DNA of 64,000 nucleotides from Cenococcum geophilum. Taxonomy: Eukaryota. Below are positions 6,738 through 58,867 of the stretch, piece after piece. Below the pieces are notes generated by a model that worked only from the letters and a program-made list of their open reading frames with translations, did not search any database and was not told the DNA's origin. Positions within the stretch are counted from its first letter, which is position 1. Each line of letters starts with the position of its first letter. The stretch spans positions 20,832,001 through 20,896,000 of the forward strand of contig CP158635.1 of NCBI GenBank assembly GCA_050273025.1. Reading direction: 5' to 3'. The position numbers and the translations under genes were made by a program.

Positions 6738-9219
6738 AATAAAGACCTATTTTTATATATTCTATTTTTATGGTTTTAGTTTATATAATATTCTATCTAT
6801 ATATTTATAATATAAGAGCTACCTTATATAGCTTATAAATTTTAGATAAAAGATCAGATATATAAAATATGTATATTAACTTATTATTTAATACCTATTT
6901 TAAAAATGGCACTATCCTTAGTACCCCATTAACTTCAGTATACCTAGCGGCCGCAGCTATCTTAAGTGCAAATTAGGTAGGTAAACTCCACCTATTAATA
7001 TTATTAAGAATTATAATAATAGTTATAGTATATCCAGTTACTATAGCTACCTCTAACATTTTTCCTAACTGCTAGGTTTAGGAGCCTATGTTCTAGCCCA
7101 TCTTATCTTTAAATATCCCACTAACAATCCCGCTATCGCGGCTATTATTAAAACTTCTCCTAACTCCTAAATCCGACCCTAGAAAGTATAGCCCTTAATA
7201 TTATTAAGAGAACTAGTAAGAGCTTAAAGACTTTTATAGGAGCCCGTTTTGCGGCTTAGCATATAACACTTTATCAGCTATTCTAATTAAGGTTTCTATA
7301 AAAAGCGGCCAATAAAAACCGCCACGTAAAAAAAACCCAATATAATGTAGTAATATAGCCACTTAAGATATAAATGAATTTAAGACTTATTCTATATACT
7401 TACTAAGCTATTACTATACTAACTTACACTTAATTTAGTATAAGAAATTAATCTAACCCTAGGCCTTACCAGTTAGGTAGGGGTATAAACTCTAACTTAG
7501 ACTTTACTTCCTATATAGCCTAGTAAGAGCTAATTACAAATTTTCTAAAATAATCTGCAATCTACGCCCAATCGTTTATTATCTGCTGTATTTATTAAAT
7601 ATTAGCTTAAGCTGCCTAGAGTACAGGTCTTAGTTTATTTACTTCCTCCTCTACATATCCTTTTAATTTAAACTCTTTAATTACCTAATCCCGCCAATAA
7701 TTAAGCTTAATAGTTAATCTACTATTCTCTACTTCTAATTTTTTAATCTTCCTTAAAAAGCTTACGTCTTCTTACTAAGAAGTATCCTTCTCTAAATAAT
7801 CTAAATAATATATAGATGTACTAGCAGGAACAGCTTTAAACGATATACCTATATTACGGCATAGTTCTATATACGCTCTAATTAAATACTTACTTATATG
7901 TTTTTTTTATAAATAAATACCACTTTTTAGGCAGAAATGTCTAATTATAAGGATTATCGGGACCTGTAATTAGACGGACTTATAATAGTTTAATTAAAAT
8001 CCCTAATTTACTAGCTTTAAGACTTAATTAGTAACTTAAGTCCGCTAGTTAAAAGTTCTATACCCTTATAAATATGTTTAGATAACTGTTGTTAATATTA
8101 AGCCCCCTACTTAGCACGCTTAAGGTTTGCTCTTTAAGGCAGAGCCATTTTAGGGTTAAATTTTTTATTTTGTTTATGTATAGGCCCCCCAAAATTTAAG
8201 TATCCCAAAATAGCTAGCGGCAAAATTGGCTTTAGCTAGAATCTACTAACTTCCTACTATACTAACTATAGAAGCGTATTTTATAAAGCAGAAGGGAGCC
8301 AGAATAAAGCCCTTCTAAAAATAGTAACTAGTTAACTCAAAATCACTTACTATACTACTTTAGCCGACCCCTTACTATAGACAACTAATGCTCTATTTCT
8401 GGTGCGTAGAATTTATAATAGTAACCGAGCACCAATAAGCAAAAGCTATAAAGCCTAGGTATACTCTAAATATATAATTACTTATAAAACTAGCTTTTGC
8501 CTTAACGCACCTAAGACTAGAGTTGTTATATTCTTAGTAAACGCTAGTGTTCTTATATGGATTATATTACCGTAGCCTAAGGTTACCTATTACTAAGTTA
8601 ACTAAAGCGCACAAAAAATCTTAACGCGGACTAAGCTCGCAATAATTATAGTCTAACTTTACAATACGGCCTAACTTATTATATAACATACGGCTATATC
8701 TACGTCGCAGAATTCTCTAAAAGAATATTATATTACACTACCTTTAAGCGTTATAGATGTAGATACGCCTTTAACGCCTCCGCTAACTAACAATAATTGT
8801 CTCGTTCCCAGACCTTCTTGCCAAGGCTTACCTTGCCAAGACGCTAGCCGCTTTTGGCAAGACCTTCGTTAGAAGGTCTGGTACACGGTTCGGATTTTTA
8901 TTAGTCCCGCGCGGGGTATTTAGGCCTATATACACCTACTTTAAGCCAAATTATCTCAACTCTTATAGCTCCCTAAGCTATTCCTAATAGCTAGAATTAC
9001 CAAAGCAAACCTGGCGAAGAAGACTACGTTGCCTGATTTGCCCGATTCTAATTCGTTATCTCGTTGTCGCGCCCGACGCCCCCAAGTCGTAGCAGCCCAC
9101 GACCACCGCCGCCCTCTTCCTACTGTAGCCAGAGTACCCAAACCGACGAGCCAGCTTTAAATAATAACTAAGGACTACTAGCAGGTATAGATTTGCTTTA
9201 TAGAAGGGGGTAAGCTTTA

Positions 9220-10082
9220 GGTAGAGCCTCGCGCAGAGCTTTAATAAAGCCTTATGTAGAGCTTTAGTAGAGGCTTACGCAGAGCCCTACGCAGAGCTCC
9301 GCGTAGAGCTTCGTGCAGAGCTTCTGCAGAGCTTCGTGCAGAGCTTCGTGCAGAGCTTTGTGCAGAGCTTTATGCAGAGCCTCCGTACGCAGAGCTTCGT
9401 GCAGAGCTTCATGCAGAGCTTTATGCAGAGCCTCCGTACGCAGAGCTTCGTGCAGAGCTTCATGCAGAGCTTTATGCAGAGCCTCCGTACGCAGAGCTTC
9501 GTGCAGAGCCTCCGTACGCAGAGCTTCGTGCAGAGCCTCCGTACGCAGAGCTTCGTGCAGAGCCTCCGTACGCAGAGCTTCGTGCAGAGCCTCCGTACGC
9601 AGAGCTTCGTGCAGAGCCTCCGTACGCAGAGCTTCGTGCAGAGCCTCCGTACGCAGAGCTTCGTGCAGAGCTTCGTGCAGAGCTTCGTGCAGAGCTTCGT
9701 GCAGAGCTTCGTGCAGAGCTTCGTGCAGAGCCTCGTGCAGAGCCTCGTGCAGAGCCTCTGCAGAGCTTCCTGCAGAGCTTCGAGCAGAACTTCGAGCAGA
9801 GCTTCGTGCAGAGCCCCGTGCAGAGCTTCGTGCAGAGCCTCATACAGAGCTTCGTGCAGAGCCTCGTGCAGAGCTTTGAGCAGAGCCTTATGTAGAGCTT
9901 TAAAGAGCTTTAAGCAGAGCTTTAAGCAGAGCTTCGAGTAGAGCTTTAAGTAGAGCTTTAAGCGGAGCTTTATATAGAGCCTTGTATAGAGCTTTATATA
10001 GAGTCTTATATAGAACTTTATATAGAGCCTTATATAGAGCCTTATATAGAGCTTTATATAGAGCTTTATATAGAGCTTTATA
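9220..10082 (+). repeat. 12-bp-based minisatellite (CAGAGCTTCGTG with CAGAGCCTCCGTACG variants)
   Basis: Directly visible tandem array; edge units are RIPed to TAGAGCTTTATA. Confidence 0.95.
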
Positions 10083-10189
10083 TAAATATATAGGCGTATA
10101 GATATATATTTTTATACTAGTAATTAATTATAAAATTTATAGAAATATTTATATAGAAAATTATATAGATATTTATTTATTTATTTATA

Positions 10190-11285
10190 GTAAGGCTAAT
10201 AATACTATACGGCTCCTAGATCTAGGGCCCAGGACTAGGTAGTAAGGTATTAATAAAAAGTTCCTTAGCGCTATTAGCTAAGCTATAAAACTAGTACCTA
10301 TATAGAACTATAAGGGTTTATAAGAGAACACTACGCGCCATACTAGAATATAAAGTAGTAGTTTTACTAGTAGACTTATATTAATATAACTACTATATAG
10401 AGAATAGTTATAGTATAAGGCTACCTAGTAAAAGAAAATATATACTAAATACTAAAACGTATATAAGGAATAAGACGTATATAAGGATCGAAGGCCCCTT
10501 AAAGAGGCAATACGCCTAAATATACTAGCTAGGAAGCTCTCTACCTATAGGTAGTAAAGAGAGAAAAGAAAATATAAAAACTATTAGCTTACTAGGCGGA
10601 GACCTAGCGCCGTATTAATAGAGTACTACTATAGTAATAGAGGATAAGAGGCTATTAGTATAGATAGAGATCTACCATACTTATTATAAAATAGGTAGAC
10701 CTTAAATAGAAGGAGGTAGTGAAAATATAAGACGTAGCTATATAGAATACCCTATAGTTAATACTAATACTCCTCCTATATAAAGGACTAATAAAGGTAA
10801 AATCTATAGCCGCTTTCCTACTATAGATAGAGATTTTAAGCCTAAATATATAGCTAGTAAGTATTTATATTCTAAATATTATACCTTAATACACTTATAG
10901 ATAGCCTATTTAGTTAGTATACTATATACTACTTTTCTATAGCTACTACTTACTAAGGTATTAGCTATTTACTAGTATAGGTATAAATAATATTACTTAT
11001 ACTCTCTATAAGTAGGGGCCTATAAGTAGTATTAAAATAGCTTATAGGCTAAGGAGTTTTTAGTAGTTCTAAATAGTATATAAGATTTAATAGGAGGACA
11101 CTAAAGGATATACCCCTTTTAGCCCCTTAGAGACTAAATACCGCTGCTTAGCTATAAGTAGTATGCTAATAAATTACCAAATACTTCTACTGCCCCCTCT
11201 AGATCTTCTAATATACCTAAAAAGTATAGTATATAAGGTAGACCTAAAGATATAAAGATATATTAGTTTAGTAAAGGTAGAATAT
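10190..11285 (+). mobile_element. RIPed Tad1-like LINE fragment (ORF2 C-terminal part)
   Basis: De-RIPed VRPTMLYGSQIWG…LAKLQNQCLRRTMGAYKRTP…; homologous to the three other copies in 11288-16893. Confidence 0.8.
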
Positions 11286-11287
11286 AT

Positions 11288-12750
11288 AAAACTAATATAT
11301 TTTTATATCTTTAGGTCTGCCTTATATACTATATTTTTTAGGTATATTAGAAGATTTAGGGGGGGTAGTAGAAGTATCTAGTAATTCGCTAGCGTACTAC
11401 CTACTACTAGGTAGGGGTATTTAGTCTTTAAGGGGCTAAAAAAGGGCGTACCCTTTAGTATCCTTCTATTAGATCTTATATACTATTTAGAACTATTAAA
11501 GAACTTTTTAGCCTATAAGCTATCTTATTACTACCTATATACCTTTACTTATAGAGAGTATTTAGGTAATATTGTTTATACCTATACTAGTAAGTAGCTA
11601 GTCCCTTACTAAGCGGTAACTATAGAATAGTAATATATAGCGTACTAACTAAATAGGCCACCCATATATATTAAGGTAAGGTATTTAAAATATGGATGCT
11701 TATTAGTTATATATTTAGGCCTAAACCCTTTATCTATAGTAGAAAGGCGACTATAGATTTTATCTTTATTAGTATTAACTATAGGGTGTTCTTTATAGCT
11801 GCGTCTTATATTTTTACTACCTTCTTCTATTATTGCTTTTATTTAAGATCTGCCTATCTTATAATTAGTATAGTAGATTTCTATCTATATTAGTAACCTT
11901 TTATCCTTTATTACCATTATAGCGCTCTACTAGTATTGTATTAGGTCTTTGCCTAGTAAGCTAATAGTTTCTATATTTCCTTTTCTCTCTTTACTACTTA
12001 TAAGTAGTAGGCTTCCTAGCTAGTATATTTAGGCGTATTACCTCTTTAAGGGGCTATCGCTCCTTATATATATTTTAGTATTTAGTATATATTTTCTTCT
12101 ACTAGGTAGCCTTATACTATAACTACTCTCTATATAGTAGTTAAGTTACTATATAAGTCTAGTAGTAGAACTACTACTTCGCGTTCTAGTATAGCGCGTA
12201 ATATTCTTTTATAGGCCCTTATAGTTCTATATAGGTACTAGTTTTATAGCTTAGCTAGTAGCGCTAAGGAGCTTTTTACTAGTACCTTACCGCCTAGTCC
12301 TAAGCCCTAGATTTAGGAGCCGTATAGCATTATTAGCCTTACTACTACTATATATAGTAGACGTATATATTTAAAAGAGGGTCCTTATATTAAAGTAGTA
12401 ATTTATAATACTACTAAAAATACTACTACTTCTCTATAAGTCGCCTATATAATATACTTGTTTTAGTTTAACCTAGAGTCTATCTAAACCCCTAAAACCT
12501 TAAGGGTAGCTTCTAGTTTTACTTCGCAGCTCTAGATATTTACTATTAAGGCTAGGTCGCTACTTACCCTTTTTTCCCTTATAAAGTAAATAAGCTAGTA
12601 ATTATTTAGTACGAATTTAGCGCTATATTGTTTTGCCTATATAATATACCTATTATATACCTAGTTTAGCCTAGTATTGTTTTCTACTACTATATTTCCC
12701 TATATAATTAAGCTTATATTATCTATATATTTTAGGACTATTATATCCTA
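11288..12750 (-). mobile_element. RIPed LINE fragment (late RT to C-terminal region), inverted relative to 10190-11285
   Basis: Minus strand WARQHGAKFAP…LKVLGVQMDSRLNW…ITASTWGPSF…LLYTAVVRP. Confidence 0.8.
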
Positions 12751-12751
12751 G

Positions 12752-13850
12752 CTATTATTATTATTATTTATTTATTCTATTTATTGCCCGATTTAGTCCC
12801 TTTACTAAGTCTATATAGGCTTCTACCTTCTATTTATAGGAAAAATCCCTAATAAGGGAAAAACCTAGGTGTTTCCTTTTAGCTAATCTTATGCGCTCCG
12901 CCTATACCTAGCCTATTTACCTTTTATACTATACTTCTAAGGTATCTTAGAAGGTCTAGGGGGTAGTAGGAGGGTCTAGTAAGTCGCCTATAAGCTGCCT
13001 TTAACTTAGTAGGGTTATTTAGTCCCTAAGGGGCTAAAAAGGGGCCTATCCCTTATATCCTCTTATTAGATCTTATACGCTATCTAAAACTACTAGAGGA
13101 CTTCTTAACCTATAAACTATTATACTGTTTTATATAGGCCCCTACTTATAAATAGTATTTATATAATATTATTTATGCCCACCCTAGTAAATAGCTAGTC
13201 TTTTACTATATAGTAGTTATAGAAGAGTATTATATAGCGTACTAACTATATAGGCTATTTATACGTATAGTATAGTATAGTATTTAGGATATAGATACTT
13301 ACTAGATATACGTTTAGCCCTAAGACCTCTATCTATAATAGAAAGGCGGCTATAAATTCTACCTTTATCTATCCTTTATATAGAGAGAAAGTTAATATTA
13401 TTTATAGGGTGCTCCACGTAGTTCCTCTCTACGCTTTTACCGCCTTCTTTTAACATCGTTTTCACTTAATATCTACCTATCTTGCGATATATATAGTAGA
13501 TCTCCACTTATACTAGTGGCCCCCTATCCTTTACTATTACTATAGTGCTCTACTAGCGTGGCGCTAAGTGTTATAGTAGCTTTTATATTTCCTATTCTCT
13601 TTCTACTACTTATAGATAGAGGGCTTTTTAACTTATAAGCTTAGGCGTAATGCTTCTTTATAGGGCCCTTGCTCCTTATATACGCTCTACTATTTAGTAT
13701 ATCTTCTTCTTTACTAGGTGGCCTTATACTATGGATGCCCTCTATATAGCAGTTGCTTCTATATATACGTCTAGTAGTAGTAGTACTACTTTACGTTCTA
13801 TTACGGTATATAGTGTCCTTTTATAGGCCCCTATAGTTCTATATAGCTAT
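12752..13850 (-). mobile_element. RIPed 5'-truncated LINE copy with (TAA)n-like 3' tail
   Basis: Tail read as TATTATTATTATTATTTT at ~12753-12775; homologous to 15560-16893. Confidence 0.8.
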
Positions 13851-13859
13851 TATTTTAGC

Positions 13860-15190
13860 TATTATTATATATCTCTAGTAGTTTAAATATAAAGAAAAGA
13901 ATTAGAATTAGAAATAGGGGTAATCCCTATATAATACCTATAGGTATTAGTATTAATTCGCTTTTATAGCCCTTAATTATAATTTTTATAGTACGCCCTA
14001 TTAGAAAGGCTTAGATAAAGTTAATTATCTAGTTTAGTAGGCCTTTATTTCTTAGGATTTATAAAAGTCTCTTATATAATATATTATTAAATATTCCGCT
14101 TAGGTCTAGACTTAGTATAGATATAATATACCTTAGGTAAGCTTACTATACCGCTTAAATACTAGATGTAATTAGAAAGAGAGCTAAAAGGGTTAATATT
14201 TTCTTTCTTACGCTTATTTATATCTACGGTAGTAGCTTTTATGCTTCTGCCGCTTCTTATATACATTTTATAACTATCTTTTTTAAAAGCCTTTTTAGGG
14301 TTAGTAGCTTTCTAAAATAGAGTAGTCTTTTTTTATACCTTTTATAAGACGACTATAGTTATTACTTTAAAGTATTTAAGTAGTTCGCCTCTCTAAAGGT
14401 AGGTAGTTACGACGTTAGCAAATTATATTACTACTACTTTTACTACAGCTTTAATTGCCTTATTTAGGGTCTTATTTAGCCTTAACGCTTTACTAGTAAG
14501 GAGCTTTTATATAGCGTCCTTTATTTCTTTTACTAATATTATATAACTTATATTAATAGATAAGGGGTAAAATTAGCTACTAATATTCTATAGGTCTGTT
14601 TAGCCCGCGCCTAAAAAGAACCTCTACTAATATTTTAATATTTTCCTTGTTATTATTTATATACTAGTTTTATTTTATCTAGTAAAGTATAAATAGGTAA
14701 AAGTCCCCTAGCGTCTCTTTAGCAGCTTACCTACTTTACTTTAATATACGCTAGAGTCCCTTATTATATAGTTTAGTAAAATCTAAGGTAATTTCTTCTA
14801 GGAATTAGCGCTAGCTATTTCTATCCTTCTTTATATTATCTTCTTAGGCGTATTCTTTAGGGCCTTATAGCTCTATTAGTAGTAGGCTTTATTAATTACG
14901 CTATACTATTACCTTACCCTTTTTACGCCTATAAGTAGTTAGGCCATTTCTAGCGACTATTTACGGTAGACGTATTTTCTAGGCTAGGCCTTTAGGTAGT
15001 ATTTTTTTAAGTAGTTACTTATAATCCTTTAGATATTCTCTAGTAATACCTAAGGTATAGCTACTAGCCTATTAGTAACTTTCTATGTATACTTTTTTAA
15101 GTTAAATTTCTTAGTAATATGTCTTTAGCGGGTTTATTATGCTAATGTGGCGATATTAAGTATTATCCGTATAGGTATATAGTCTAAGAT
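13860..15190 (-). mobile_element. RIPed LINE reverse-transcriptase core fragment
   Basis: Minus strand SMLSLDLSGAFDNVSHERLLWILRNKGLPNW…FLTGRTT and GIxQGxPLSPILxLFF. Confidence 0.8.
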
Positions 15191-16893
15191 AATTACTAGC
15201 TTATCTACTTTATAAGGAAAAGGAGGGTAAGTAGTAACCTAGCCTTAATAGTAAATATCTAAGGCTATAAAGAAAAACTAGAAGCTACCCTTAAGGTCCT
15301 AGGGGTTTAGATAGACTCTAGGTTAAATTAAAATAAGTATATTATATAGACTACTTATAAAAGAGGAGTAGTACTTTTAGCAGTATTATAAATAACTACC
15401 TTAATATAAGGACCCTCTTTTAAATATATACGCCTACTATATATAGTAGTAATAAGGTTAATAATACTATACAGCTCCTAAATTAAGGGCCTAAGACTAA
15501 ATAGCAAGGTATTAATAAAAAGCTCTTTAGCGCTACTAGCTAAGCTATAAAACTAGTACCTATATAGAACTATAAGGGCCTATAGAAGAATACTACGCGC
15601 TATACTAGAATATAAAGCATTAGTTCTACTACTAGACTTATATATTATTAAACAGTTAATTAAGGATAAGAACTCTGTCTATTAAAGAGGGCTCTAGAAG
15701 CTCTTTATATATATTAGGTAGGTCTAGATAAGTAAGTTAAAATAGGTAATAGAAATAGGTAATAAGATATTTAATAAGACATTTAGTTATAAGTTAAGAG
15801 ATAACTAAGATATAGTTCGTATAGACGATCTAGGTCGTTAGATAGTAGTATAATAGTAGTAAGGAAAGTCCGATCTAGGTCGATATATATTAACTTAACT
15901 ACTATATAGAGAGTAGTTATAGTATAAGACTACCTAGTAGAAGAAAATATATAATATATACTAAAATATATATAAGGAACGAGATATATATATAAAGCAA
16001 TAGCCCCTTAAAGGGGCGATACGCCTAAATATACTAGTTAGGAAGCCCTCTACCTATAAGTAATAGAAAGAGATAAAGAATATAGGAACTATTAACTTAC
16101 TAAGTAAAGACCTAGCGCTATACTAGTAGAGCGCTATAATAGTAATAGAGGATAGGGGGTTACTAATATAGATAAGATAGGCAGATCTTAAATAGAAGCA
16201 ATAATAGAAGAAGGTAGTAAAAATATATAACGCAGCTATATAGAATACCCTATAGTTAATACTAACTCTCTCCCTATATAAAGGACTAATAAAGGTAAAA
16301 TCTATAGCCGCCTTTCTACTATAGATAAAGGTCTTAAGTCTAAATATATAGCTAATATCTATATTCTAAATATCTTACCTTAATATATATACGGGTGGCC
16401 TATTTAATTAGTATACTATATACTACTATTCTATAGTTACCGCTTAGTAAGGAACTAGCTACTTACTAATATAGGTATAAATAATATTACTTAGATACTC
16501 TTTATAAGTAGAGGCTTATAGGTAGTAGTAAAATGGCTTATAGGTAAAGGAATTCTTTAGTAGTTTTAAATAGCATATAAGATCTAATAGGAGGACACTA
16601 AATAATACGCCCTATTCTAGCCCCTTAAGGACTAGATACCCCCGCCTAGCTATAGGCGGCTTACTAGCAAATTGCTAAACCCTTTTACTACCCCCTTTAG
16701 ATCTTCTAATATACCTAGAAAGTATAGTATATAAGGTAGGCTAGAAGATATAAAGATATACTAGCTAGGTAGAGATGGAACGAGTAGGACTAGCTAAAAG
16801 GAAATACTTAGGGTTTTCCCCTTATAGGGCTTTTTCCTATATAGACTTAAAAAGGGACCAAATTGGGTAATAAATAGAATTAATAATAATAAT
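15190..16893 (+). mobile_element. RIPed LINE 3' portion with (TAA)n tail, carrying a solo LTR
   Basis: Starts at YQLIHFTRKR; ends AATAGAATTAATAATAATAAT. Confidence 0.8.
15646..15885. mobile_element. RIPed solo LTR (~240 bp) inside a LINE
   Basis: Insertion relative to the sister LINE copies; TA…TA ends (TG…CA before RIP); TATAT direct repeat on both sides. Confidence 0.7.
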
Positions 16894-16949
16894 TATATAG
16901 GCGGTTATATAGCTAATTATAGAACCTTCCTAGTATATTAGTGCTGTGT

Positions 16950-18187
16950 GTTAGTAGAGCTTTAAAGCTCTATATAAGGTTTTGAGCAGAGCTTCAAGTA
17001 GAGCCTTGTGCAGAGCTTCGAGCAGAGCCTTGTGCAGAGCTTTGAGCAGAGCCTCGTGCAGAGCTTCGTGTAGAGCTTCGTGTAGAGCTTCGACCAGAGC
17101 TTTGACCAGAGCCTCGACCAGAGCCTCGACTAGAGCTTCGACCAGAGCTTCAACCAGAGCTTCGACCAGAGCTTCAAGCAGACCCTCGAGCAGAGCTTCA
17201 AGCAGACCCTCGACCAGAGCTTCGAGCAGGCCCTCGACCAGAGCTTCGACCAGAGCTTCGACCAGAGCTTCAACCAGAGCTTCAAGCAGACCCTCGACCA
17301 GAGCTTCGACCAGACCCTCGACCAGAGCTTCGACCAGAGCTTCAAGCAGACCCTCGACCAGAGCTTCGAGCAGGCCCTCGACCAGAGCTTCGACCAGAGC
17401 TTCAAGCAAACCCTCGACCAGAGCTTCAAGCAGACCCTCGAGCAGAGCTTCGAGCAGGCCCTCGACCAGAGCTTCGACCAGAGCTTCAAGCAGAGCCTCG
17501 ACCAGAGCTTCGAGCAGGCCCTCGACCAGAGCTTCGAGCAGGCCCTCGACCAGAGCTTCGAGCAGGCCCTCGACCAGAGCTTCGAGCAGGCCCTCGACTA
17601 GAGCTTCGACCAGAGCTTCGACCAGAGCTTCGACCAGAGCTTCGACCAGAGCTTCGACCAGAGCTTCGACCAGAGCTTCAGGCAGACCCTCGACCAGAGC
17701 TTCGACCAGAGCTTCGACCAGACCCTCGACCAGAGCTTCGACCAGAGCTTCGACCAGACCCTCGACCAGAGCTTCGAGCAGAGCTTCGAGCAGACCCTCG
17801 ACCAGAGCTTCGACCGGAGCTTCGAGCAGACCCTCGACCAGAGCTTCAACCGGAGCTTCGACCAGAGCTTCAACCAGACCCTCGACCAGAGCTTCGAGCA
17901 GACCCTCGACCAGAGCTTCGAGCAGACCCTCGACCAGAGCTTCGACCAGAGCTTCGACCCTCGAGCAGAGCTTCAACCAGAGCTTCGACCGGAGCTTCAA
18001 GCAGACCCTCGACCAGACCCTCGACCAGACCCTCGACCAGACCTTCAATCAGACCTTCGACCAGACCTTCGACCAGAGCTTCAGGCAGAGCCTCGTGCAG
18101 AGCTTTATATAGAGCTTTGTATAGGCGTTCGTGCAGGCGTTCGTGCAGGCGTTTGTGCAGGCTTTTGTGTAGGCGTTTGTGCAGGCA
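16950..18187 (+). repeat. 12-bp minisatellite (CAGAGCTTCGAC / CAGACCCTCGAC variants)
   Basis: Directly visible tandem array; explains the overlapping 365-376 aa ORFs on both strands. Confidence 0.95.
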
Positions 18188-19194
18188 GCGGAGGAGCAAT
18201 AGAGCAGGTAATAAGGCCTAGAGTTAGTCTAGATACAATACATTAGCTATTTAGGTGTTTATCTACTATAAATATTAATATAGGAGGTCAAATGTTAAGA
18301 GTTAGTGGCTCTGGCTAAATGTTTACTGTTTTGGTGTTAATTTGGTGGCAATATTTTAGGCGAAACGTAGCGGTAACCACCAGGCCGTTTGTAATAATTT
18401 TGGCGGCGTTAGAGTCGCCCTGCAAAGCTCTAGAACGTAACGTTAGCCGATTATTTATAAAGGCGTTGGTTCGTTGTTGATTGATGGCTAAAAAATTAGT
18501 ATGGCGCGCGAGTTTGTATGAGAATTACATACAAATTGGCGCGAGGGACTAACAAATTTCCGAACCGTGTACCAGACGACAACAACATAAGATGATTAAT
18601 CTGTTATGTAAGCAGCTTATGATTGGTTGATCGTCTGGGACCGAGATAAAACAATAAAGCCTTTACTAAAGCTTACTAAGTTATTACACTTTTTAAACAT
18701 ATTAAAGCCGGAAGACACTTTAGGCATTACCTATAGACACTCTTTTAGCTTACGCTAGGGGAATATAATAAGATAGAGCACCAGCTTACGCGAGATAAGT
18801 CGCTATTAGTTATATAAAGGACAAGATACGGTATATAGGCTTAAGGGATAATAGAGCGGCTAGCTAATAATGGAAATTAGATAGATATAACTATAATAAA
18901 AGAAATTATTAACTTACTGTTCGGATACCGACTGGTATACATAAAATATTTATCGCTAGTATTAAGGATGCAATTTACAGCTAGCTAAAACTAATTCGTA
19001 ATAGGTTAGACAGGCAGCTTTATTTATATAAAGGGTGCGCCTAGGGTATATAGGCATCACCGTACCAGAAAGAGGCGTCTGGCTTATATTTCAACTTTAT
19101 ATTAGGTAGAGCGTCATTAACTAAAAAATACATCGGGAAAATATTCGCAGGATGAGATTTAAGTAGACTTTGATTTTCGTGTTTCGCGTAATTG

Positions 19195-19440
19195 ACATGC
19201 AATTTAACTAACTCGATACGTAATTAACCAACTTAATACGCATTTAACTAACTTAACACGTAATTTAACCAACTTAACACGCAATTAACTAACTTAACAC
19301 GCAATTTAACCAACTTAATACGCAATTAACTAACTTAACACGTAATTCGACCAACTTAATACGTAATTAACTAACTTAATATGTAATTTAATTAACTTAA
19401 TACGCAATTAATATGTAATTAACTAACTTAATATATTTAA
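19195..19440. repeat. 20-21-bp tandem repeat (CAATTTAACCAACTTAACACG-like)
   Basis: Visible tandem units, roughly a dozen. Confidence 0.9.
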
Positions 19441-19589
19441 AAGTTAAATAATACGCAGTTAACCTACTTAGCAACTTTAAAAGGTAACTATATATTTCTT
19501 AACATACAATTAAGGTAAAGTTGTATGCTATATATTTAACTATTATATATTATCTAATATAATCTTATACAATCTTATATAGTCTTATT

Positions 19590-19922
19590 ACTTAAAGGCT
19601 CTGCACGAGGCTCTGCACGAGGCTCTACACGAAGCTCTACACGAAGCTCTGCGTACAGAGGCTCTGCACGAAGCTCTGCGCATAGAGGCTCTGCACGAAG
19701 CTCTGCACGAAGCTCTGCACGAGGCTCTGCGCGAAGCTCTGCGTACGGAGGCTCTACACAAAGCTCTGCACGAGGCTCTGCGCGAAGCTCTGCATACGGA
19801 GGCTCTACACGAAGCTCTACACGAAGCTCTATACGAAGCTCTACGTACAGAGGCTCTACACAAGGCTCTGCGCGAAGCTCTGCGTGAAGCTCTGCGTACG
19901 GAGGCTCTACACGAAGCTCTGC
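19590..19922 (-). repeat. Reverse-strand copy of the CAGAGCTTCGTG/CAGAGCCTCCGTACG minisatellite
   Basis: GCTCTGCACGAA and GCTCTGCGTACGGAG units are the reverse complement of the 9220-10082 units. Confidence 0.95.
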
Positions 19923-20049
19923 ATCGGGTCCCCGCTATATTCCCGATAGCGTCTACACGTGTCTCTACCTATGTAGCCGCCTTATTTTTTACCCTTCCTT
20001 CCTTCCTTACATCCTCCCTACCTAGGGAGGCACTAGAACGGCAGCCAGC

Positions 20050-20520
20050 AGAGGACCGTTGCTAGAACTAGATAACTATCGCTAGAATCAGACGACCGTC
20101 GCCAGAACCAGACGACCGTTACCAGAACCAGACGACCGTTACCAGAACCAGACGACCGTCGCCAGAGCTAGACGACCGTCGCCAGAACTAGACGACCGTC
20201 GTCAGAGCCAGACGACTATCGCCAGAGCCAGACAACTGTCGCTAGAACCAGACGACCGTCGCCAGAACTAGACGACCGTCGCCAGAACCAGACGACCGTC
20301 GCCAGAACCAGACGACCGTCGCCAGAACCAGACGACCGTCGCCAGAACCAGATGACTGTCGCCAGAACCAGACAACCGTCGCCAGAACCAGACAACTATC
20401 GCCAGAGCCAGACAACTGTCGCTAGAACCAGACGACCGTCGCCAGAACCAGACGACCGTCTCCAAAGTCAGACGACCATCGCTAGAACCAGACGACTGTC
20501 GCCAGAGCCAGACGACAACG
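20050..20520. repeat. 20-bp tandem repeat GCCAGAACCAGACGACCGTC
   Basis: Exact 20-bp periodicity over more than 20 units. Confidence 0.95.
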
Positions 20521-20569
20521 ACTAGCCAGCGAACACTATAAACGATTCGATCAATTAATCGAATTAAGG

Positions 20570-20930
20570 TAGCATAGACAGGTAGGCACAAACAGGGATG
20601 CTGACGGGTAGGCAAATATAGACAGGTAGGCAGATACAGACAGGTAAGCAGATGCAGACAGGTAAGCAGATGCAGACAGGTAGGCAGATGCTAACGGGTA
20701 GGCAGATATAGACAGGTAGGCAGATGCAAATAGGTAGGCGATGCAGACAGGTAGGCAATGCAGACAGGTAGGCAATGTAGATAGGTAGGCAATGCAAACA
20801 GGTAGGCAATATAGACAGGTAGGCAATGCAGATAGGTAGGCAATATAGATAGGTAGGTAATGTAGATAGGTAGGCAATGCAGATAGGTAGGTAGATAGGT
20901 AGGTAGGTAAGTTAATAGGTAGATAGGTAG
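20570..20930. repeat. 16-18-bp tandem repeat (GATGCAGACAGGTAGGCA)
   Basis: Visible tandem units decaying to (GGTA)n. Confidence 0.9.
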
Positions 20931-22239
20931 AAGAGAACTATCGCTATATTATATTAAATTATCTAAAATAATATTTATTTTGCTAGCCTTATAAATAGCT
21001 TTAAAATAGCTTTTATTTATTTAAAATATGCTATTAGTATAAAAGAGGTAAATATAATTATGGTTGCCAAATACGCAGATTGCTGGCAGGTTGCGCGCAG
21101 GCTGCGCGCAGGCTGCGTGTCAAAAAAACATGACATAGGCTAGTCGGTTGAGTTGCCAAATGACCTCAACTGCGCGCTAATTGCGTCAACCACCAGCCAT
21201 TGAGGCCATTAAAAGGGTACCATATTTTCCCGATGTAAATCTTAGTAGAACGGGCTAGAATATATTAAACTAAAAGTATAAGCTTATAAAACTTTTATTT
21301 AGAAAAGATAATAAGATATAGAGAGTAACGTCCGTCCCTAGGTCGCGAAAAACCCACCATACCAAAAAATATAAGGGGTACTTTGACTTTAAGCAACTTA
21401 AACTCTGCGTATATATTAATATTTACTATAGTTCTATATAAGTCATATGCTATAGCTACTTTTAAACATTTAGGACCCCTTCCACCTATAAATTATATTC
21501 GCATTATCGCCTTTACGCCTAATTCGCAGAGAGCCTCCTTTTATAGCATAACAGAGTTCCTTCCCTACAGCACTACCGTTAAGCTCTTACCACTCTATAA
21601 TACTTATAAACGGTCTTATCTAAGCCTTAGAGCTTTACTACAATGCTAGAAAGTCATCATTAGCCTTATACCTACTATAGCGCGCAAATTTATGTAAGGT
21701 TACTACGCGCGTTAGTACTTCCAATTAAAGCAATTACCGATCCCGGCTAGTGCAAAACAACGCCACATATCCTATATAATTATCACCGTGTAATTTACTT
21801 ATATTATCTAGTTAGTAAGCTAAGCTTATGGCTGTTAGGCTTATAGCTATACAGACGCTTAGAATATAAAGATTTAACTCCAAAGTAGTTAGCAAATAAT
21901 ACTAATAACCGCTTAACACATCCTAAAGTAGCATCCGCTTTATTAAAACGTTATCCTCTCTTCCTAACTTATTACTTTAAAGTTATTATTATTGTTTATA
22001 TAGTAGAGCGTACTACTTACTAAAAAACGCGACTAAAAGCGCTCAGACCCTCTTTAAGGCTTTTACTATATAGTAAGAAGGCAGCAGCGGTCCTAGTACC
22101 TTAAAAGAGCAGAGGGCTGCGTATTTACGCTTCCTTCACTCGCCCCTCTCAAAGCGCTTAACTCCTATTATCCTTAAAGGCACCATAAAGGGTAAAGATT
22201 CTTTATTTTTCGCTGTATTTTTAAATCTAACGGTCCGCA

Positions 22240-41290: not shown

Positions 41291-41863
41291 AAAGTCTCTT
41301 ACTTAGGAGTTAATAAAGTCATACTTAATGTCTTCTTATTCTTCGGCTATTTCTTTATATAGAAACCACTCTATAGCGAGAACATAACTGTAGTTGGTTA
41401 TACTATTAATCGTCCTATTAGTAGCGTTAAAAGCTACTTTAGCTATTCCCCCCTGCTCTATTATAACTATAGGCCTAAGTATAAATTTTAGAATCCTAGA
41501 TTAATAGCTCTATTAAAAAAAATATAATTTAAAAGTTTTAAGACACTCTACTTTTATAAACATATATTTGGGGAATTTCGCTAAGCGGAGGAGGGGTATC
41601 TACTAAGGCGTAATAATTTAGTACGTATTAATATGCATTAGCATGCTTATATTAAACTATATTTTTATAGTATTAATTTTAACACCATCCTATTTTTAGA
41701 ATATATTTTAGCATTATTATAGCGTACGCAATCTCTTCCCCGCTTCCTATTATGAAATATTTTAAATATTAACCACTACCTTAAACCCTTCTAAGACGTT
41801 TATAAATATTTATTAAATATATTGCAAGAGCATAGCAAACAAGATATACCACTATATATCTTT

Positions 41864-44800
41864 TGTAACGAAGCCTTATAGCAAGTACTACGATAGGCTC
41901 GTTAATGGGCTAGGTGTGTAGGTATTATAAGCAAGTTAATAACGTAATAACAACTAGTAGAGTGGTTGCCTAACAGATTAACTCTAATTATATTCTAAGA
42001 ATTACTACAAGGAAAGAACTATCTAGAGTAGGGACTATAGTCCTTTAAATACATAACCGTACTTTTAGAAAACCCTCCTTATACGTAAGGTATGCGTACT
42101 CTATTTACTTTATCGCAAATTATATAGATTATACAGATTATATAGATTATATTATATAACTTAGTTACCATTCCTTATTATATAGTTTTACCGGCTCTAT
42201 TTTAGACCGTACCTATATTAACTAACTAGCTTCTTCTAACTCCTCTCTAAGTAGTTATAATATTATACTTAAAGCGTCCGTAATACTATCTCCCTCCTCT
42301 TTATCTTCGTCCTTAAAGATTTTAAATATCTCTAAGTTATTTACTAAAGGTATAATATCCATCTAATTAATTTAGTTAATATTGTTACTTATTATACCTA
42401 AAGTAATTTCTTTTTCTTCTATAGTTTAACGTACTCGCACTATTACTGCTATACTATTACTAGGTAAAATAATACTATCTTTATATTCTCGTTATATAAA
42501 AAAGGGGTTAGTTTACGTTGCGCTAGTAAGCCCTTTATTTTAGTAACCTTCCTTTTATTTAGAGTGTACTAAAGCAAATATTTATTTATCCTATAACGTT
42601 TACTCTATTTCTAACGCTAAGTATATACGTTTTATAACTTTTAATAGTCTCTAAGTTCTCTAAGTAATTTATTATGGGGTTTTATATTTAATTTACTACT
42701 ATAAAGCTTAATAGTAAGCTCTTAAGCGCTCTTAATAAATTATATTAATCGCGAAAGGCGGAATAAAAGGCTATGGCTGCTTAATAGCGTGCCCTTAAAA
42801 CTCGTCTTCTAGCCTTTACTTATTTTCTACGTCTTAAACGGGTTTGTAAAAAGGTTTATTTTAAGAAGTAGAAACTTATAAAATAAGGTCTGCAGGAACT
42901 GGGTAATAAGAGAACTAACTCTCTTCCTATAAAGGGAATAACTCTAAGTAGTTCGGCAGTCGCTCTTCCTAGGTCCCCCTTAGGTAACTTATTTTTTAGC
43001 GATCCTTCTTTATTAATATTACCTAACCTATTTTCTTCCGATACTCTCCTATACCTTTCCTATAGCGTTCTTTAAATTTTTTAGTAGCTCCTAGGTAGTC
43101 TTGTTATAGCCTATCCACTTTACCTTATACTATATTTTATCATTAACGTCCTTATAACTAACGATCTTTAAAACTTACTATTTGTCTTCTTTTCGCCCTT
43201 TATACGTGTCTGCTTTATAAACTAGTAGCTTAATATTTCTATATACTGGCTTTAGCATTACAATATACTATATAGGGTAGATTCTTATTCTAGCTGGTAA
43301 GTTTAACTTAAATATAACTGGTAAAATCCTTTAAATAATTTTAAAAGGTCCTAGTCTAATATAGTCTAACTTCTTACTTAGTCGTTAACTCTTGAAATTT
43401 TTGTGTAGTAGCTATACTTTATCTCCCTCCTTAAGATCTAGTCCCTTAGATCTCTTAGCGTTATAGTATTTTTTTTATCCTTTACTATACTACTTTTGCT
43501 ATTTCCGTAAAGTTCTTATAAAGATTTATTAATATCTCTATTCTTTACTTTACTATACTACTTATCTTTTTTACTTAATATAGTGATAATAATGTCCTTA
43601 GCTCGTATCTATAATTCGCCTTAAATAGTAAAGTACCTATTCCTTTTTAAGGTATTATATTGTATATAAACTATATAATTAGTAATAGTAATACCTAATT
43701 ATTTTATACGTAATTAATATAGTGCCTTAGATACTACTCTAGTATCTAATTTAGTCTTTCTATTTAACTATCTATCTGCAGATAATATGCGGTAAAAGTT
43801 ACTGCTCTAACTCCTTACTCCGCTAAGAATACCTCCTAAAATACTGCTATAAATTTTAGATCTCTATCTAATATAATTTTACTTAATACTCTATATCTTA
43901 TAAATACTTCTTTAATATAGATTTTAGCGACATCTTCTGCTAATATTTCTTCTATATACGCTATAAAGTATCCCTACTTTATAAACTTGTCCACTATTAC
44001 TAAGATTATGTTATAATTTTACCCTATAATAGGATCTCTTAATTTTAGTAACTTAATAATAAAGTCCTATAATATAACCTCCTATAGTCTTTTTAGTATT
44101 TTAATAGGTTATAGCCCTCTATATAGCTTATGCCTTATTAGTTTATTCCTTTAGCAATTTAGATACTCTTTAATGACCTTCCTAGCTATCCTTTAGATTC
44201 CATTAATAATATACTCCTCTTAAAGTCTTAATACTAAGCCCGTAGCTCTATTATATCCTTAAGTTAGTTCCTTATAGAAATCTTCTATAAAGTGCTTTAC
44301 TATACTTCTTAGGATATACTTTACTTCTTAGTTTTCGTATATATCCGTTTATAGATCTTTTAGCTATATTTTTAGAATTTTCTATACCTAAAAGCTTTCT
44401 AGTAACTTATAAATTCTATTTAACTTATTTTCCTAAGTTACTGCGATCTTTAAATAATTGTATTTAATTAACCTATCTATATCTTTTTGCAGTAAAGCCC
44501 CTAATGGCTTTTTATTATTTTGTAGTTTAGCCTTTTAACTTAACACATTGGCCCGTATATTGTCTATACCCGTAATATACTAAATCTTAAAATAATATTC
44601 TATAAGCATCTCTGCCTATTTAACCTATCTTTAGTTAAGTTCCTTTATTATTAGGAATCCTATTAGGTTTTAATAATCCATTTTAACTATAAATAGTTTC
44701 TCCGTGCCTTATAAAAATGCTCTCTATTTCTTTAATACTATAACTATACCTAATAACTCCTTATTATAGATGTTATAGTTTAACTCTAGTAGTATTATTT

Positions 44801-46265
44801 TTTAACTATAGTATACTACTAGGTGCTATTTATCTAGATACTTTTATATAAAATATACCCCTAGTATAAAGTCTAATATATCTATTTCTATAACTATCTT
44901 TAGTCCTAATTAATAGATCTTAAGAACTAGCTCCTAGGTAAACAACTCTTTAACTCTCTTAAATAGTTTTTATTATTCCTTCCCCTATACCTACGGTTCT
45001 TCTTTTTTTGTTAGTTGTATAAATAGCTTAATATTCTTTAATTATTGCGCTATAAACCTTCTACAGTAATTGCAAAACCCTAAAAATAATCTTAACTGTA
45101 TAACATTCTCTAGTTCTTACTAATTTACTATAGCCTTAATCTTCCTTAGATCTATACTAAATTAGCTTAGTTTAATAATAAATCTAATAAAATTGGTCTT
45201 CCTAGTAAAGAACTCGCATTTTTTAATTGCTACTAGTATCTATTCTTCTTATAGTCTCTTTAAAACCCATTTAACGTGTTCTCCATATTCTTCCTTAGTT
45301 ATTAAATAGATAATAATATCGTTAAGGTATACCATAATAAATTTATCCAAGTATTCTCCTAATACATTATTAATTTGCTTTTAGAACATTGCTAACGCGT
45401 TTATAAGCCTAAATTATATAACCAATAGTTTATATAGTCCTTTTTTTAACTTAAAAGCTGCCTTCTATTTATCGCCTTTCTTACTCCTAATCTAATAGTA
45501 CGCCTATCTTAGATCTATCTTTATAAAGATTTGCATATTACCTATCCTATCTTAAATTTTGCTAATTAAGGGTAAAGGATACCTATCCTTTCTAGTAATG
45601 CTATTTAACTATTTATAGTTAATATACAGCCTTAGTTTGCCATTCTTCTTTAGTATAAATAGTACTGGATAACCCGCTAATAATTGTAATAGTCTAATAT
45701 ATTCCTTTTATAAGTTCTCCTAAATAAACTCTTTAAGTACTTTACCTTCTTTTTTAGTAAGCTTATAGATTGGAAAGAACCTTAAACTTATTCCTAGTTT
45801 TAATTCTATCTTATAGTCCTATATTATATACTTTAATAGCTTTTTACTTTCTAGTAACTATAGTTTCTTACTATACTTATAGTATCTCTTTAGTATATAG
45901 CTTAGCCCTTTTTCTGTTTCTTTATAGGTCGCTCCTACTTAGTACTATACTATCTTAGCTTGTTATTACATCCTACGGCGTTAAGTATTCTTAATATTAA
46001 CCTGACCTATAACCTAATTAATCTTTAGATTATATTCCTATAATTAAGGCATTCCTAATACTGCCTTATTATTCCCTAATAGTAATATATTAAAAGATAT
46101 CTTAATTTATCTTCCTTTAATGGTTAACTAAATAGGTCCTGTTTTAAGATTAATAATACCTCCTTTATAGGCTATTAAATCTCCTAAAATTGTTACTAAT
46201 AGGTAAGGATATTCCTTTTTCCTATATAGTAACCCTATTTTTTTTAACTACTATTAGCGAGATAT
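41864..46265 (-). mobile_element. 5'-truncated Ty3/Gypsy chromovirus: protease remnant, RT, RNase H, integrase, chromodomain and 3' LTR (41864-42285)
   Basis: VYLDDI (~45320), LGPFKI (~43345), YEVKWIGY…TWEP chromodomain (~43090-43125), PPT next to the LTR; LTR is the reverse complement of 54667-55088. Confidence 0.95.
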
Positions 46266-48186: not shown

Positions 48187-48801
48187 CGATCGCCCGCGGA
48201 GCATACGGTTACTTACTACTAACTATTAAATACTACCTAGCAGCCTAGATAATACCGTACAGTTTTCCTATCTCCTCTTAAGGAGTGGTAACCCTTAGCG
48301 AGGGCCTAGTAACTAGGGCCTAGGTATAAAAGATACTTAGGCACACACGTCCCGCTCGCCTTTTAGTATAGTGGTAGTTTATAAATAAATCCCCCTTACG
48401 CCTTCAATAGGCCTTAGGGGGGGGAAGGCATGGCGTATATAGTAATAGTTAATAAGAGATAGCATATAGGGGGTGGTTAAAATACGGAACATAACCATAA
48501 GTATATAGTAATTAAACGGCAAGGCCTAGCTAGGATGTAGTAAACCCTAGCTAGGATAAGCTAGAGAAGGAAGCAGTAGTTTTTAAGAAGTTCGAACATC
48601 TAAGGAGGACAGGACGTAGCCGTAGGCCCGTAGGGCCGCCGCTATAGACGGACATGGCAAACCGGGGTTTTTTTATCCTACTAAGGTGGCTTATAGGGTT
48701 TTTCCTCCTTTAAACTGCAGGGTTTTCTTCCTATAAATTATAAGTTTTCCCCCTATAACGGAGTAGTCTGCGTGGGCCTAGATAGGATCCGTATCAGACG
48801 T
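48187..48801 (-). repeat. Right copy of the ~620-bp inverted repeat (partner 558-1192)
   Basis: …GGATCCGTATCAGACGT|TAA; collinear reverse-complement match with RIP changes and small indels. Confidence 0.9.
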
Positions 48802-57600: not shown

Positions 57601-58867
57601 AGAACTACCTAATTATAGAAAAGGCTATAACCCATATTAAAGGAGCCTTAATTATAACGTTAAAGGATTTAGAGGAGTAATTAGAGGACTAGAGAAGTAA
57701 AAGATAAATTTTAGTACCTGCAAATAAAGTCGCAACGCTTAGATTAATACAAAAAAGGTTTAAACTTAAGAATAAAGACGAGCTAAAAGTTAACTTAAGA
57801 TACTAAGTATATTATATACTATTATAGATAGTATATATAGATAATACGTGTAATATATATAGAGCACTAAAAGACAAAAACCAGAAATATCTAGTGAGGA
57901 TATATTAGTTAGCAGATAAGGCGAAATATTAAAACGCTAAGTATATATATGGTTAGTACTTAATAGAAGTTTAAAAATAAGGGGACTTAATACTTTAACT
58001 AGGAAGATTCCTTACGGAAGAATGCCTAGATAAATAACAATAGTAGGAATGTCTAGAGAATACCTATCTATAGTATATTAAAGATAAAAAGCGAACTAAG
58101 TATTAGCCTAAAATAGACTAAGTATAAATAGGATCTAGTAGCTAATAGTTAGGAAAAGTAGAGGCCTATAGGACTAGAGGGAACCAGTAATAGAGCCTTA
58201 AACCCTTAAAGGAATTTAAAAACAACACCTAAATTTATAAATTAAGTGGCAAAATTAACAGTTTAAGGCATTAATAGATAGTGGAGTAATAAAGAACTAT
58301 ATCTCGCTAATAGTAGTTAAAAGAATAGGGTTACTACATAGGAAAAAGGAATGTTCTTACCTATTAATAATAATTTTAGGAGATCTGATAGCCTATAGGG
58401 AAGGTATTATTAATCTTAAAATAGGACCTATTTAGTTAACTATTAAAGGGAGATAAGTTAAAATGTCTTTTAATATATTACTATTAGGGAATAATAAGGC
58501 AGTATTAGGAATGCCTTAGTTACAGGAATATAATCTAAAGATTAATTAGGTTATAGGTTAGGTTAATATTAAAAATACTTAACGCTATAAGATACGATAA
58601 TAAGCTAAGTTAGTATAGTACTAAGTAGGAGCAACCTATAAGGAAATAGAAAAAGGACTAAGTTATATACTAAAGAGATACCACAAATACGGTAAAAAAC
58701 TATAGTCGCTAGAAAGCGAAAAGCTATTAAAATATATAGTATAGGACTATAAGATAGAATTAGAACTAGAAATAAGTCTAAGGTTCTTTCTAATCTATAA
58801 GCTTACCAAAGAAGAAGGTAGAGTACTTAAAGAGTTTATTTAGAAGAACTTATAAAAGGGATATATT
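54667..58867 (+). mobile_element. Ty3/Gypsy element (same family as 41864-46265): 5' LTR 54667-55088, gag, protease and start of RT, interrupted by Copia
   Basis: 422-bp LTR ending TTACA; gag ERSKLKGFL…GRALEWF; zinc knuckle CxxCxxxxHxxxxC (~56123-56164); ALIDSGA protease (~58268). Confidence 0.95.

Follow-up and report, generated by a model that had tools for sequence, protein, structure and literature searches.

The element at positions 8797-18649 of the window, the whole 64,000-nucleotide stretch analysed here, derives from a helicase-encoding Academ transposon (family A) and is itself non-autonomous, and integration of this family is aimed: a bZIP-type word is found on one side, exactly 15 bp away from the edge of the target site duplication (TSD), in either orientation of the element. 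We regard this explanation as a whole as very probable, its tethering and hairpin components being graded separately below.

Examination of the termini reveals that the element is bounded by an exact 8-bp TSD, AACAATAA, with plus-strand copies at 8789-8796 and 18650-18657. The left end (plus strand) comprises a 17-bp outer terminal inverted repeat (TIR; 8797-8813), a hairpin with end-specific arms closed by CCAGAC/GTCTGG (8808-8881) and an inner inverted repeat (8882-8908). The right end (minus strand) comprises the outer TIR (18633-18649), a hairpin of subfamily R1 (18572-18638) and the inner inverted repeat (18545-18571). The two TIRs are identical at 15 of 17 positions, and the inner motif shared by both ends has 261 matches genome-wide. 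Both hairpins fold better than all of 200 shuffled versions on both strands (z -4.2 and -5.8 for the left, -4.3 and -6.4 for the right). The first-pass annotation had described an exact 8-bp TSD, a distinct hairpin at each terminus and the order of outer TIR, hairpin and inner repeat, all of which are borne out. The letters that it gave for the ends are corrected at two points: the 3' arm of the left stem, a perfect 11-bp stem, ends in GGT rather than GGG, and the third position of the right TIR is A, as in the right ends listed, so that the consensus begins with TTR.

The interior begins with a left leader common to the autonomous 17-kb copies (8797-9175, plus strand; 90% over 389 bp versus the copy G000:C1:485582-502043), followed by a minisatellite with a 12-bp unit that is missing from the autonomous copy (9213-10084, no strand assigned), RIP-mutated LINE-like pieces in both orientations (10178-16950), a further minisatellite with a 12-bp unit (16951-18186, no strand assigned) and a right leader likewise common to the autonomous copies (18179-18649, minus strand; 85% over 481 bp). 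From either end of the 17-kb master, this copy retains about 400-470 bp. The LINE call is based on reverse transcriptase (RT) motifs recognised by eye and a weak alignment to the L1 ORF2p RT (E 0.54); an RT-like frame lies at 13870-14151 on the minus strand, and a Pfam scan of the LINE frames gave no match. In 7 of the 14 other fetched copies these pieces occur collinearly, at 91-96%, and hence they are not private insertions; they make up the constant body of a non-autonomous subfamily of 8-10 kb. Without the LINE part the element measures 3,080 bp, 2,108 bp of it minisatellite, matching the earlier estimate of about 3 kb of mostly minisatellite. The RIP-mutated host frame (8300-8796 before and 18658-19100 after the insertion, plus strand) continues in frame through the empty site, and the interrupted gene does resume after the TSD as had been claimed; a Pfam scan of this frame named no family. 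The region of the element is heavily RIP-mutated.

Genome-wide searches with the end patterns recovered 157 left and 157 right ends of family A, against 0 and 1 control matches, respectively. An exact 8-bp TSD flanks 46 of 88 nearest left-right pairs and a 9-bp TSD three of them, and none of the 88 has a TSD of 4-7 or 10-12 bp. Among the family-A pairs with a TSD, 8 bp predominates (61 of 64), the three 9-bp cases all belonging to the R2 subfamily. Apart from the self-site described below, no TSD consensus was found in family A. Four 17-kb copies, among 14 fetched, have the identical end type and encode a DUF6589 transposase (E 5.9e-33 in a master copy), which we take to be the Academ transposase, along with a convergent RecQ-like helicase. 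All four of these masters are RIP-broken. The master helicase frame is 29-30% identical to the intact helicases of sister families B and C (E 1e-41 to 1e-46), which have DEAD and Helicase_C matches over the cut-off; the Helicase_C match of the broken master frame falls below it (E 4.9e-4). A family-A master also contains a duplicated 4.4-kb segment whose coding is unassigned, and a Pfam scan of this segment gave no match.

Comparison of insertion sites showed a word, TKA-N1-2-TMA, at a constant distance from the TSD. This set of words consists largely of Yap response elements, to which stress-response transcription factors are known to bind. Of 52 non-redundant family-A sites (64 sites minus 12 that repeat a hot spot), 38 have the word starting at exactly 15 bp, and at any other distance between 0 and 49 it occurs in three or fewer. 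The published list of Yap response elements alone accounts for 26 of the 52 sites at 15 bp, and for at most one elsewhere. The word set covers half-site spacings of 7 and 8 bp, with the near edge staying fixed. Fourteen sites are devoid of the strict word, two of them having an ACAAA variant and several others being one or two transitions off. The window copy itself follows the rule, with TTACTAA, a word of the Yap response element type, at 18673-18679 (plus strand). Unpaired ends, which were not used for discovery of the rule, have the word at offset 8+15 in 15 of 60 cases, as against 4 at the next most frequent offset; this rate is lower than the 36% that one side of 73% would predict. The orientation of the element is not strict, the right end adjoining the word in 40 of 63 cases, and hot spots are struck repeatedly. 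A later insertion of family D used the word-proximal TSD copy. This fixed-distance motif had been overlooked by the first-pass annotation.

Hairpin ends recur in four sister families. Family B is represented by seven near-identical intact copies of 6,443 bp with two genes, is transcribed, and is absent at one site in another run. Families B, C and D all have 9-bp TSDs (30 of 30 in family B). In family B the E-box CACGTG lies 15-16 bp from the TSD in 17 of 29 sites; it is found at the rule distance in 9 of 13 pairs fetched afterwards, and 5 of 17 single family-B ends on metagenome contigs follow the same rule. The flank ATCAC goes mostly with a spacing of 16 or more and GTCAC mostly with 15, a post hoc comparison of small numbers (p 0.04) that gives a hint of a tie between E-box flank and spacing. 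Family D shares the word of family A in 8 of 23 ends, five of the eight being the same self-site, and counts of fixed-position words in 31 ends of family C, which is kin to B and D, yielded neither the bZIP-type word nor CACGTG. Family A is only 28% identical to family B, and a quick tree of relatives sets it apart from the B/C/D group, with D placed closer to B than to A. A model of an intact sister transposase has an RNase H-type DDE fold with a large helical insertion and is closest to the P element and to Hermes, at Z 9.9 with an rmsd of 5.5-5.7 over 301-354 aligned positions, its likeness to Hermes being at a level shared with the P element. A Foldseek search with the full transposase model gave no match at E 0.001, and a protein atlas search returned only unnamed eukaryotic clusters.

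In terms of classification, family A has the TIRs and fixed-length TSD of the Academ superfamily, an Academ-type DDE transposase (DUF6589) in its autonomous partner, and the RecQ-like SF2 helicase gene of AcademH in its masters. The 9- or 10-bp TSD reported for AcademH (PMC10045372) is seen in family B, whereas in family A only the three R2 pairs have 9 bp; given its 8-bp TSD, we classify family A as a variant of Academ that resembles AcademH, outside AcademH in the strict sense. As far as the accounts of AcademH extend (PMC10045372, PMC10799480), the present families resemble it in the Academ-type DDE transposase, the DEAD/Helicase_C RecQ-like helicase and the ascomycete host, and sister families B, C and D also in their 9-bp TSDs (PMC10045372); family A differs from those accounts in its 8-bp TSDs, high copy number, short TIR followed by hairpin and inner repeat, and fixed-distance target word. 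AcademX, for which a 3-4-bp TSD and a nuclease instead of the helicase are reported (PMC10045372), is ruled out for family A by the 8-bp TSD and the helicase. An 8-bp TSD is also made by Zisupton, Dileera and most hAT families (PMC12730594), which share TIRs with family A and could thus suggest a KDZ/Zisupton or hAT element. However, DUF6589 and a helicase are what the long copies with these ends encode, whereas those groups have another transposase family and no helicase; the partner's catalytic frame matches DUF6589 only and not the KDZ transposase (PF18758), and the transposase frames scanned have no Pfam match to hAT, a transposase with a dimerisation domain. Such an identity is extremely improbable. 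Thus, the first-pass proposal of a non-autonomous member of an unusual superfamily is upheld, with Academ retained and KDZ/Zisupton discarded from its two candidates.

One could attribute the word enrichment to RIP, which yields TA-rich words, or to a few insertions copied within larger repeats, given the heavy mutation of the region and the sites that repeat a hot spot. Against this, the signal is confined to one distance and is stronger in low-RIP sites (24 of 30 versus 14 of 22 in the remainder), duplicates were removed, hot spots were struck in opposite orientations, and RIP destroys rather than creates CACGTG; we give such an artefact almost no credence. A further explanation invokes recognition of hairpins or cruciforms by the transposase, both at the donor and as targets at the foot of the right-end stem. 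It draws on the self-site of family A, positions 73-80 of the right end, which overlaps the closing stem, and on the arm scores across ten termini given below. The self-site is occupied 18 times genome-wide versus 0 at the left-end equivalent, and right ends are interrupted in 23 cases and intact in 68, as against 1 and 97 for left ends (p 1.7e-7); both counts favour the fixed-distance rule. In the window this site is vacant (18570-18577, minus strand), and in other copies it serves as TSD. Yet the left end, with an identical closing stem and the same 8 bases, has no family-A insertions, one right end was hit at +80 even though its 3' arm is destroyed, and ordinary targets share the word. Hairpin-guided self-insertion was therefore dropped, and the broader proposal, already contradicted as a target rule, is very unlikely. 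Copies pile up at positions 73-80 because the right end holds a bZIP-type word at positions 51-57 (in the window TGATTAA, within the right hairpin at 18593-18599, plus strand, 15 bp from the self-site). Fitting the rule, R2 right ends, in which the word is 16 bp away, were hit in 0 of 13 cases (p 0.067).

Both bZIP-type words and the E-box are textbook sites of dimeric basic-region factors. Because of this, because half-site spacings of 7 and 8 bp occur with the near edge fixed, because A and D share a word despite their distance while D's closer relative B differs, and because neither of the only two proteins encoded by family B has a bZIP or HLH Pfam match, we favour host tethering, and give an even chance to host bZIP or bHLH factors being the readers of the word. 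The transpososome would be tethered by host basic-region dimers on the word, about two helical turns from the cut, the candidate partners being Yap/AP-1/ATF-type bZIPs in families A and D and bHLH factors in B. The near cut is set by the word, and the far cut falls 8 bp further along, an interval that is 9 bp in families B and D and in some R2 copies. It is about as likely as not that helicase-carrying Academ transposons are naturally tethered by transcription factors, with a conserved docking geometry that places the cut at 15 bp from the bound basic-region dimer and a partner class that has switched between sister families (bZIP for A and D, bHLH for B). Alternatively, the transposase or helicase might read the word via a DNA-binding domain of its own, in the manner of TnsD in Tn7, a possible though somewhat doubtful reading. 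An element-encoded reader could reside in the N-terminal part of the transposase, which has a weak HTH-like three-helix unit (Z up to 5.4) and a variable region at 100-180 modelled with low confidence, or in the unassigned duplicated master segment; fold searches with the N-terminal model gave nothing above noise. Moreover, family termini begin with TTA/TTG-N2-TCA-like words, and Dada has been argued to read primary sequence (PMC8869645). However, the family-B target CACGTG is unlike the family-B terminus, and a single domain would have to take both half-site spacings and the ACAAA variant while matching the published Yap list; the word-sharing pattern of A, D and B and the lack of Pfam matches also speak against it. 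Prediction of a complex between a host Cbf1-like bHLH dimer and the N-terminal part from family B, with no alignment used, scored 0.00 and speaks neither for nor against tethering.

The hairpins would belong to the donor step and not to target choice. Across ten termini they are conserved and covarying, with arms scoring 7.8 with their own partners versus 1.9 in cross pairs. We tentatively propose, at somewhat less than even chance, that the helicase opens the ends and the stems extrude, presenting an 11-15-nt tip for cleavage. Against a role for the hairpins, including the recognition of cruciform ends put forward in the first-pass annotation, stands a 108-bp copy with an 8-bp TSD that is devoid of both full hairpins and of the inner repeat, although it may be a deletion that followed insertion.

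Tn7 with TnsD and the CRISPR-associated transposons, which are prokaryotic and use an element-encoded adaptor and an AAA+ ATPase, insert at a set distance from the site of a bound protein, the cut itself being sequence-free. Family A likewise inserts at a fixed distance beside its word with no sequence need at the cut, but the Academ-like families have two genes only and no strict orientation. A base-precise distance from a factor word is also in line with host-tethered integration, as in Ty3, positioned by TFIIIB/TFIIIC, and Tf1, positioned by Sap1/Atf1, whose integrase binds the bZIP Atf1 (PMC5371812). As presented there, those are integrases of LTR retrotransposons positioned by a DNA-bound host factor; families A and B, for which such a tether is proposed, are instead cut-and-paste DNA transposons, and their factor classes would differ between sisters. 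Target specificity is described as little known for eukaryotic DNA transposons, the examples given being Pokey, CryptonV and Dada, with non-random targets in particular multicopy genes or microsatellites (PMC8869645); unlike these, as they are portrayed there, family A has a TSD without consensus and a dispersed determinant 15 bp away.

What appears new is the target rule, a base-precise aiming at regulator words, which we have not found described for such transposons in the literature at hand, AcademH being known through citing papers. A dispersed rule of this sort, with transcription-factor words as its reference point, would add a further kind of target specificity, and it provides the little-studied Academ group with a mechanism open to testing, for which the intact transcribed copies of family B are a ready test system. 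If the docking geometry is indeed conserved, each family would record the binding sites of one regulon and steer itself to promoters or to its own termini. Aiming by host factors would mean a non-random rewiring of stress and metabolic regulons by these elements, which might then be put to use as steerable tools for integration or as natural recorders of binding sites.

The window element (8797-18649) is flanked on both sides by an exact 8-bp repeat, AACAATAA, and each of its ends combines an outer TIR of 17 bp with an inner inverted repeat and, between them, a stem-loop closed by CCAGAC/GTCTGG. Folding of the hairpins beats 200 of 200 dinucleotide shuffles at both ends and on both strands (z -4.2 to -6.4), confirming the self-contained hairpin termini described in the first-pass annotation; of the stems drawn there only the last base of the left 3' arm is wrong, and the outer TIR given there has to be corrected for the right end, where position 3 is A. 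RIP mutation is strong in the surrounding DNA, and the flanking frame runs on across the rebuilt empty site, in agreement with the earlier statement that the interrupted frame resumes after the TSD. Elsewhere in the window, a minisatellite cluster with units of 20, 12, 20 and 17 bp lies at 19199-21117; its 12-bp unit is the reverse complement of the element's own minisatellite unit and may mark another repeat element. Long inverted pairs (78-90%; 555-1152 with 48229-48804, 45696-46265 with 58299-58867, 41861-42285 with 54667-55091) may bound other nested elements.

Searched with RIP-tolerant patterns, the genome (178 Mb, seven contigs) contains 157 left and 157 right ends of the abundant family to which this element belongs (family A), and 225 ends, drawn from most of the ends among the matches listed (first 100 per side), were analyzed. 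The genome-wide tabulation of TSD lengths suggested at first reading gave exactly 8 bp in 46 of 88 nearest left-right pairs, 9 bp in three and no other length. Transposition in this family is TIR-bounded, with a fixed TSD. Of 14 further copies obtained at full or almost full length, 7 have the window copy's LINE-like body in collinear form at 91-96%, so the body is a subfamily property. The long transposase-bearing copy that the annotation had proposed to look for is represented by four "masters" of 16.5-17.1 kb with the same ends. At their left end lies a DUF6589 transposase (E 5.9e-33) and at their right end a RecQ-like helicase, each reading inward; every one of the four is RIP-broken. Of the master ends the window copy retains 389 bp and 481 bp, which upholds its proposed status as a non-autonomous element of Academ type. 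All four masters also contain a 4.4-kb segment duplicated in tandem (L070:3558-7880 and a second copy further along the same element, 75% identical); it has a long frame broken by RIP, gave no match in a Pfam search and is possibly cargo or a third gene. At G000:C3:4729510-4749245 one whole copy and a second copy, separated by an 8-bp spacer and 80 bp of right end, lie within a single TSD; the outer ends of the two elements have moved them together as a composite. In PMC10045372, AcademH is described with a helicase and 9-10-bp TSDs, and AcademX with a nuclease and 3-4-bp TSDs. Family A works like that AcademH, with which it shares the helicase, but departs from it in its 8-bp TSD, and hence is filed as an 8-bp variant of the helicase-carrying Academ.

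A DUF6589 search of the genome returned 102 matches, including seven intact copies, 99.9-100% identical, of a 6,443-bp sister family with 9-bp TSDs (family B), whose two long frames encode a transposase and a helicase. RNA-library contigs from two runs cover family B with GT-AG joints (these contigs give neither strand nor level); in a third run one contig joins both flanks without the element, and a fourth has almost no reads within it. The transposase model (pLDDT 80) has a DDE RNase H fold with a large helical insertion, its nearest structures being the P element and Hermes, tied at Z 9.9. The sole joint seen inside the transposase frame (L306:2482-2530) removes 49 nt and leads to an immediate stop, leaving an N-terminal product of about 320 aa in place of the 939 aa over which the frame stays open when unspliced; at the matching place in families A, C and D the C-terminal part is not in frame with the N-terminal part, and many database relatives begin there. 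Production of the transposase as two polypeptides is one possibility, regulation by splicing another. Six plus-strand GT-AG joints over or beside the minus-strand helicase frame (L306:4399-6852) suggest spliced read-through or an antisense transcript. At L344:1688-1691 a right and a left tip of family B meet across a 2-bp spacer, the arrangement that an excised circle or a tandem dimer would give.

Hairpin ends also occur in the sister families C, D and E (z -4.3 to -10.1; one further end only -2.3). The covariation check envisaged earlier for the stems gave a positive result: across ten termini, kinship among them ignored, a 5' arm matches its own 3' arm at 7.8 as against 1.9 for another's. 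Together these observations argue, at the level of sequence, that the hairpins are a maintained trait of the lineage.

For analysis of the targets of family A, 64 empty sites were rebuilt (from 71 pairs, 10 self-site rows and one duplicate were removed, and three pairs with 9-bp TSDs and one distant pair were added), and dropping 12 that repeat a hot spot left 52 non-redundant sites. In 38 of these, the word T[TG]A-N1-2-T[AC]A lies to one side of the TSD, its start exactly 15 bp from the edge, while every other distance from 0 to 49 has at most three sites; among little-RIP sites the proportion is 24 of 30. In the window copy the word is TTACTAA (18673-18679). The rule was derived from the 52-site set itself; in a separate set of 60 unpaired, non-self ends it holds for 15 (offset 8+15), the next highest count being 4. 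Of three family A insertions with 9-bp TSDs, two keep the near edge 15 bp from the word and the third has lost it. The rebuilt sites show that insertion is aimed, the target lying at a constant distance from a word. Among the words observed are TTACTAA, TGACTAA, TGACTCA, TTACGTAA, TTAATAA and TTACAAA. When a published Yap list, supplemented with the AP-1 word, was used for scoring, 26 of the 52 sites matched at 15 bp and at most one at any other distance. The Yap response elements in that list are TGACTAA, TTAGTCA, TTACTAA, T(T/G)ACAAA and TTACGTAA, with TGATTAATAATCA for Yap8 (PMC6545440).

The same geometry recurs within the elements. Ends lie exactly 80 bp inside right ends in 14 cases among 195 ends. 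Among fetched ends of the right-end subfamily R1, this self-site (positions 73-80) is interrupted in 23 (18 by family A, five by a C/D-type element) and intact in 68, whereas the same eight bases at the left stem foot are interrupted once and intact in 97, a tally that omits ends altered in other ways (10 right, 13 left). The single left-end hit seen (L104, G000:C1:31065852) belongs to a further family whose terminus is related and which sits at the stem foot. Junction patterns genome-wide give 18 occupied self-sites on the right versus none on the left. R1 right ends carry TGATTAA 15 bp from the self-site, and left ends lack such a word; in the R2 subfamily the word is at 16 bp and none of 13 ends is hit. 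Destruction of the stem did not spare one right end, which was nevertheless hit at +80. The order of insertion is clear in one stack, where a family D element took the word-proximal TSD copy and duplicated the first base of the older insert.

Family B has a 9-bp TSD at all 30 sites and CACGTG 15-16 bp away in 17 of 29 non-redundant ones, with the bZIP-type word (TKA-N1-2-TMA) at one of 30; nine of the 13 pairs that were completed only once the rule stood conform to it (for one of these 13, one flank was already known). Word centre and TSD centre are 22.5-23.5 bp apart in families A and B alike. The bZIP-type word occurs at 8 of 23 family D ends, five of them the self-site, and neither word was found at 31 family C ends. 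In metagenome contigs, which represent close relatives and not distant taxa, 5 of 17 single B-type ends follow the CACGTG rule, about the rate expected from one side, and a D-type element has TTACTAA at 15 bp. Window 58907-58970 is an empty relative of the repeat site that carries a family B insertion in metagenome locus L365.

CACGTG is the E-box, a standard site of dimeric basic-region factors. With evenly balanced confidence, we favor tethering of the integration by host basic-region factors, because both words are standard sites of such dimers, the family A word set covers both half-site spacings, the host genome has 11 HLH matches, neither of the two family B proteins gives a bZIP or HLH match, and transposase kinship in a quick tree does not predict word preference. 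That an element-encoded protein itself reads the word draws support from an HTH-like unit, and we regard it as possible, if somewhat improbable. Tethered integration is known for Ty3 and Tf1 (PMC5371812), and the target-specific eukaryotic DNA transposons listed in PMC8869645 are Pokey, CryptonV and Dada; further papers served for comparison (PMC10799480, PMC5751038, PMC12730594, PMC10294476, PMC4455052). In the literature listings searched, outside which lie Kojima 2020, Repbase and supplements, we found no report of motif-directed Academ insertion, and an earlier mention is possible.

The hairpins would most likely act at the donor ends, together with the helicase; alternatively, they could be inverted binding sites, with template switching having perfected the arms. 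A 108-bp element (L145, G000:C3:4257831-4257938) consists of two half-ends with an 8-bp TSD and without full hairpins, which argues against a strict need for them if that copy moved as it is now. The feature in the window is real and its superfamily already known; the targeting behavior, which has strong sequence support, would be new, and the mechanism offered for it is a proposal.
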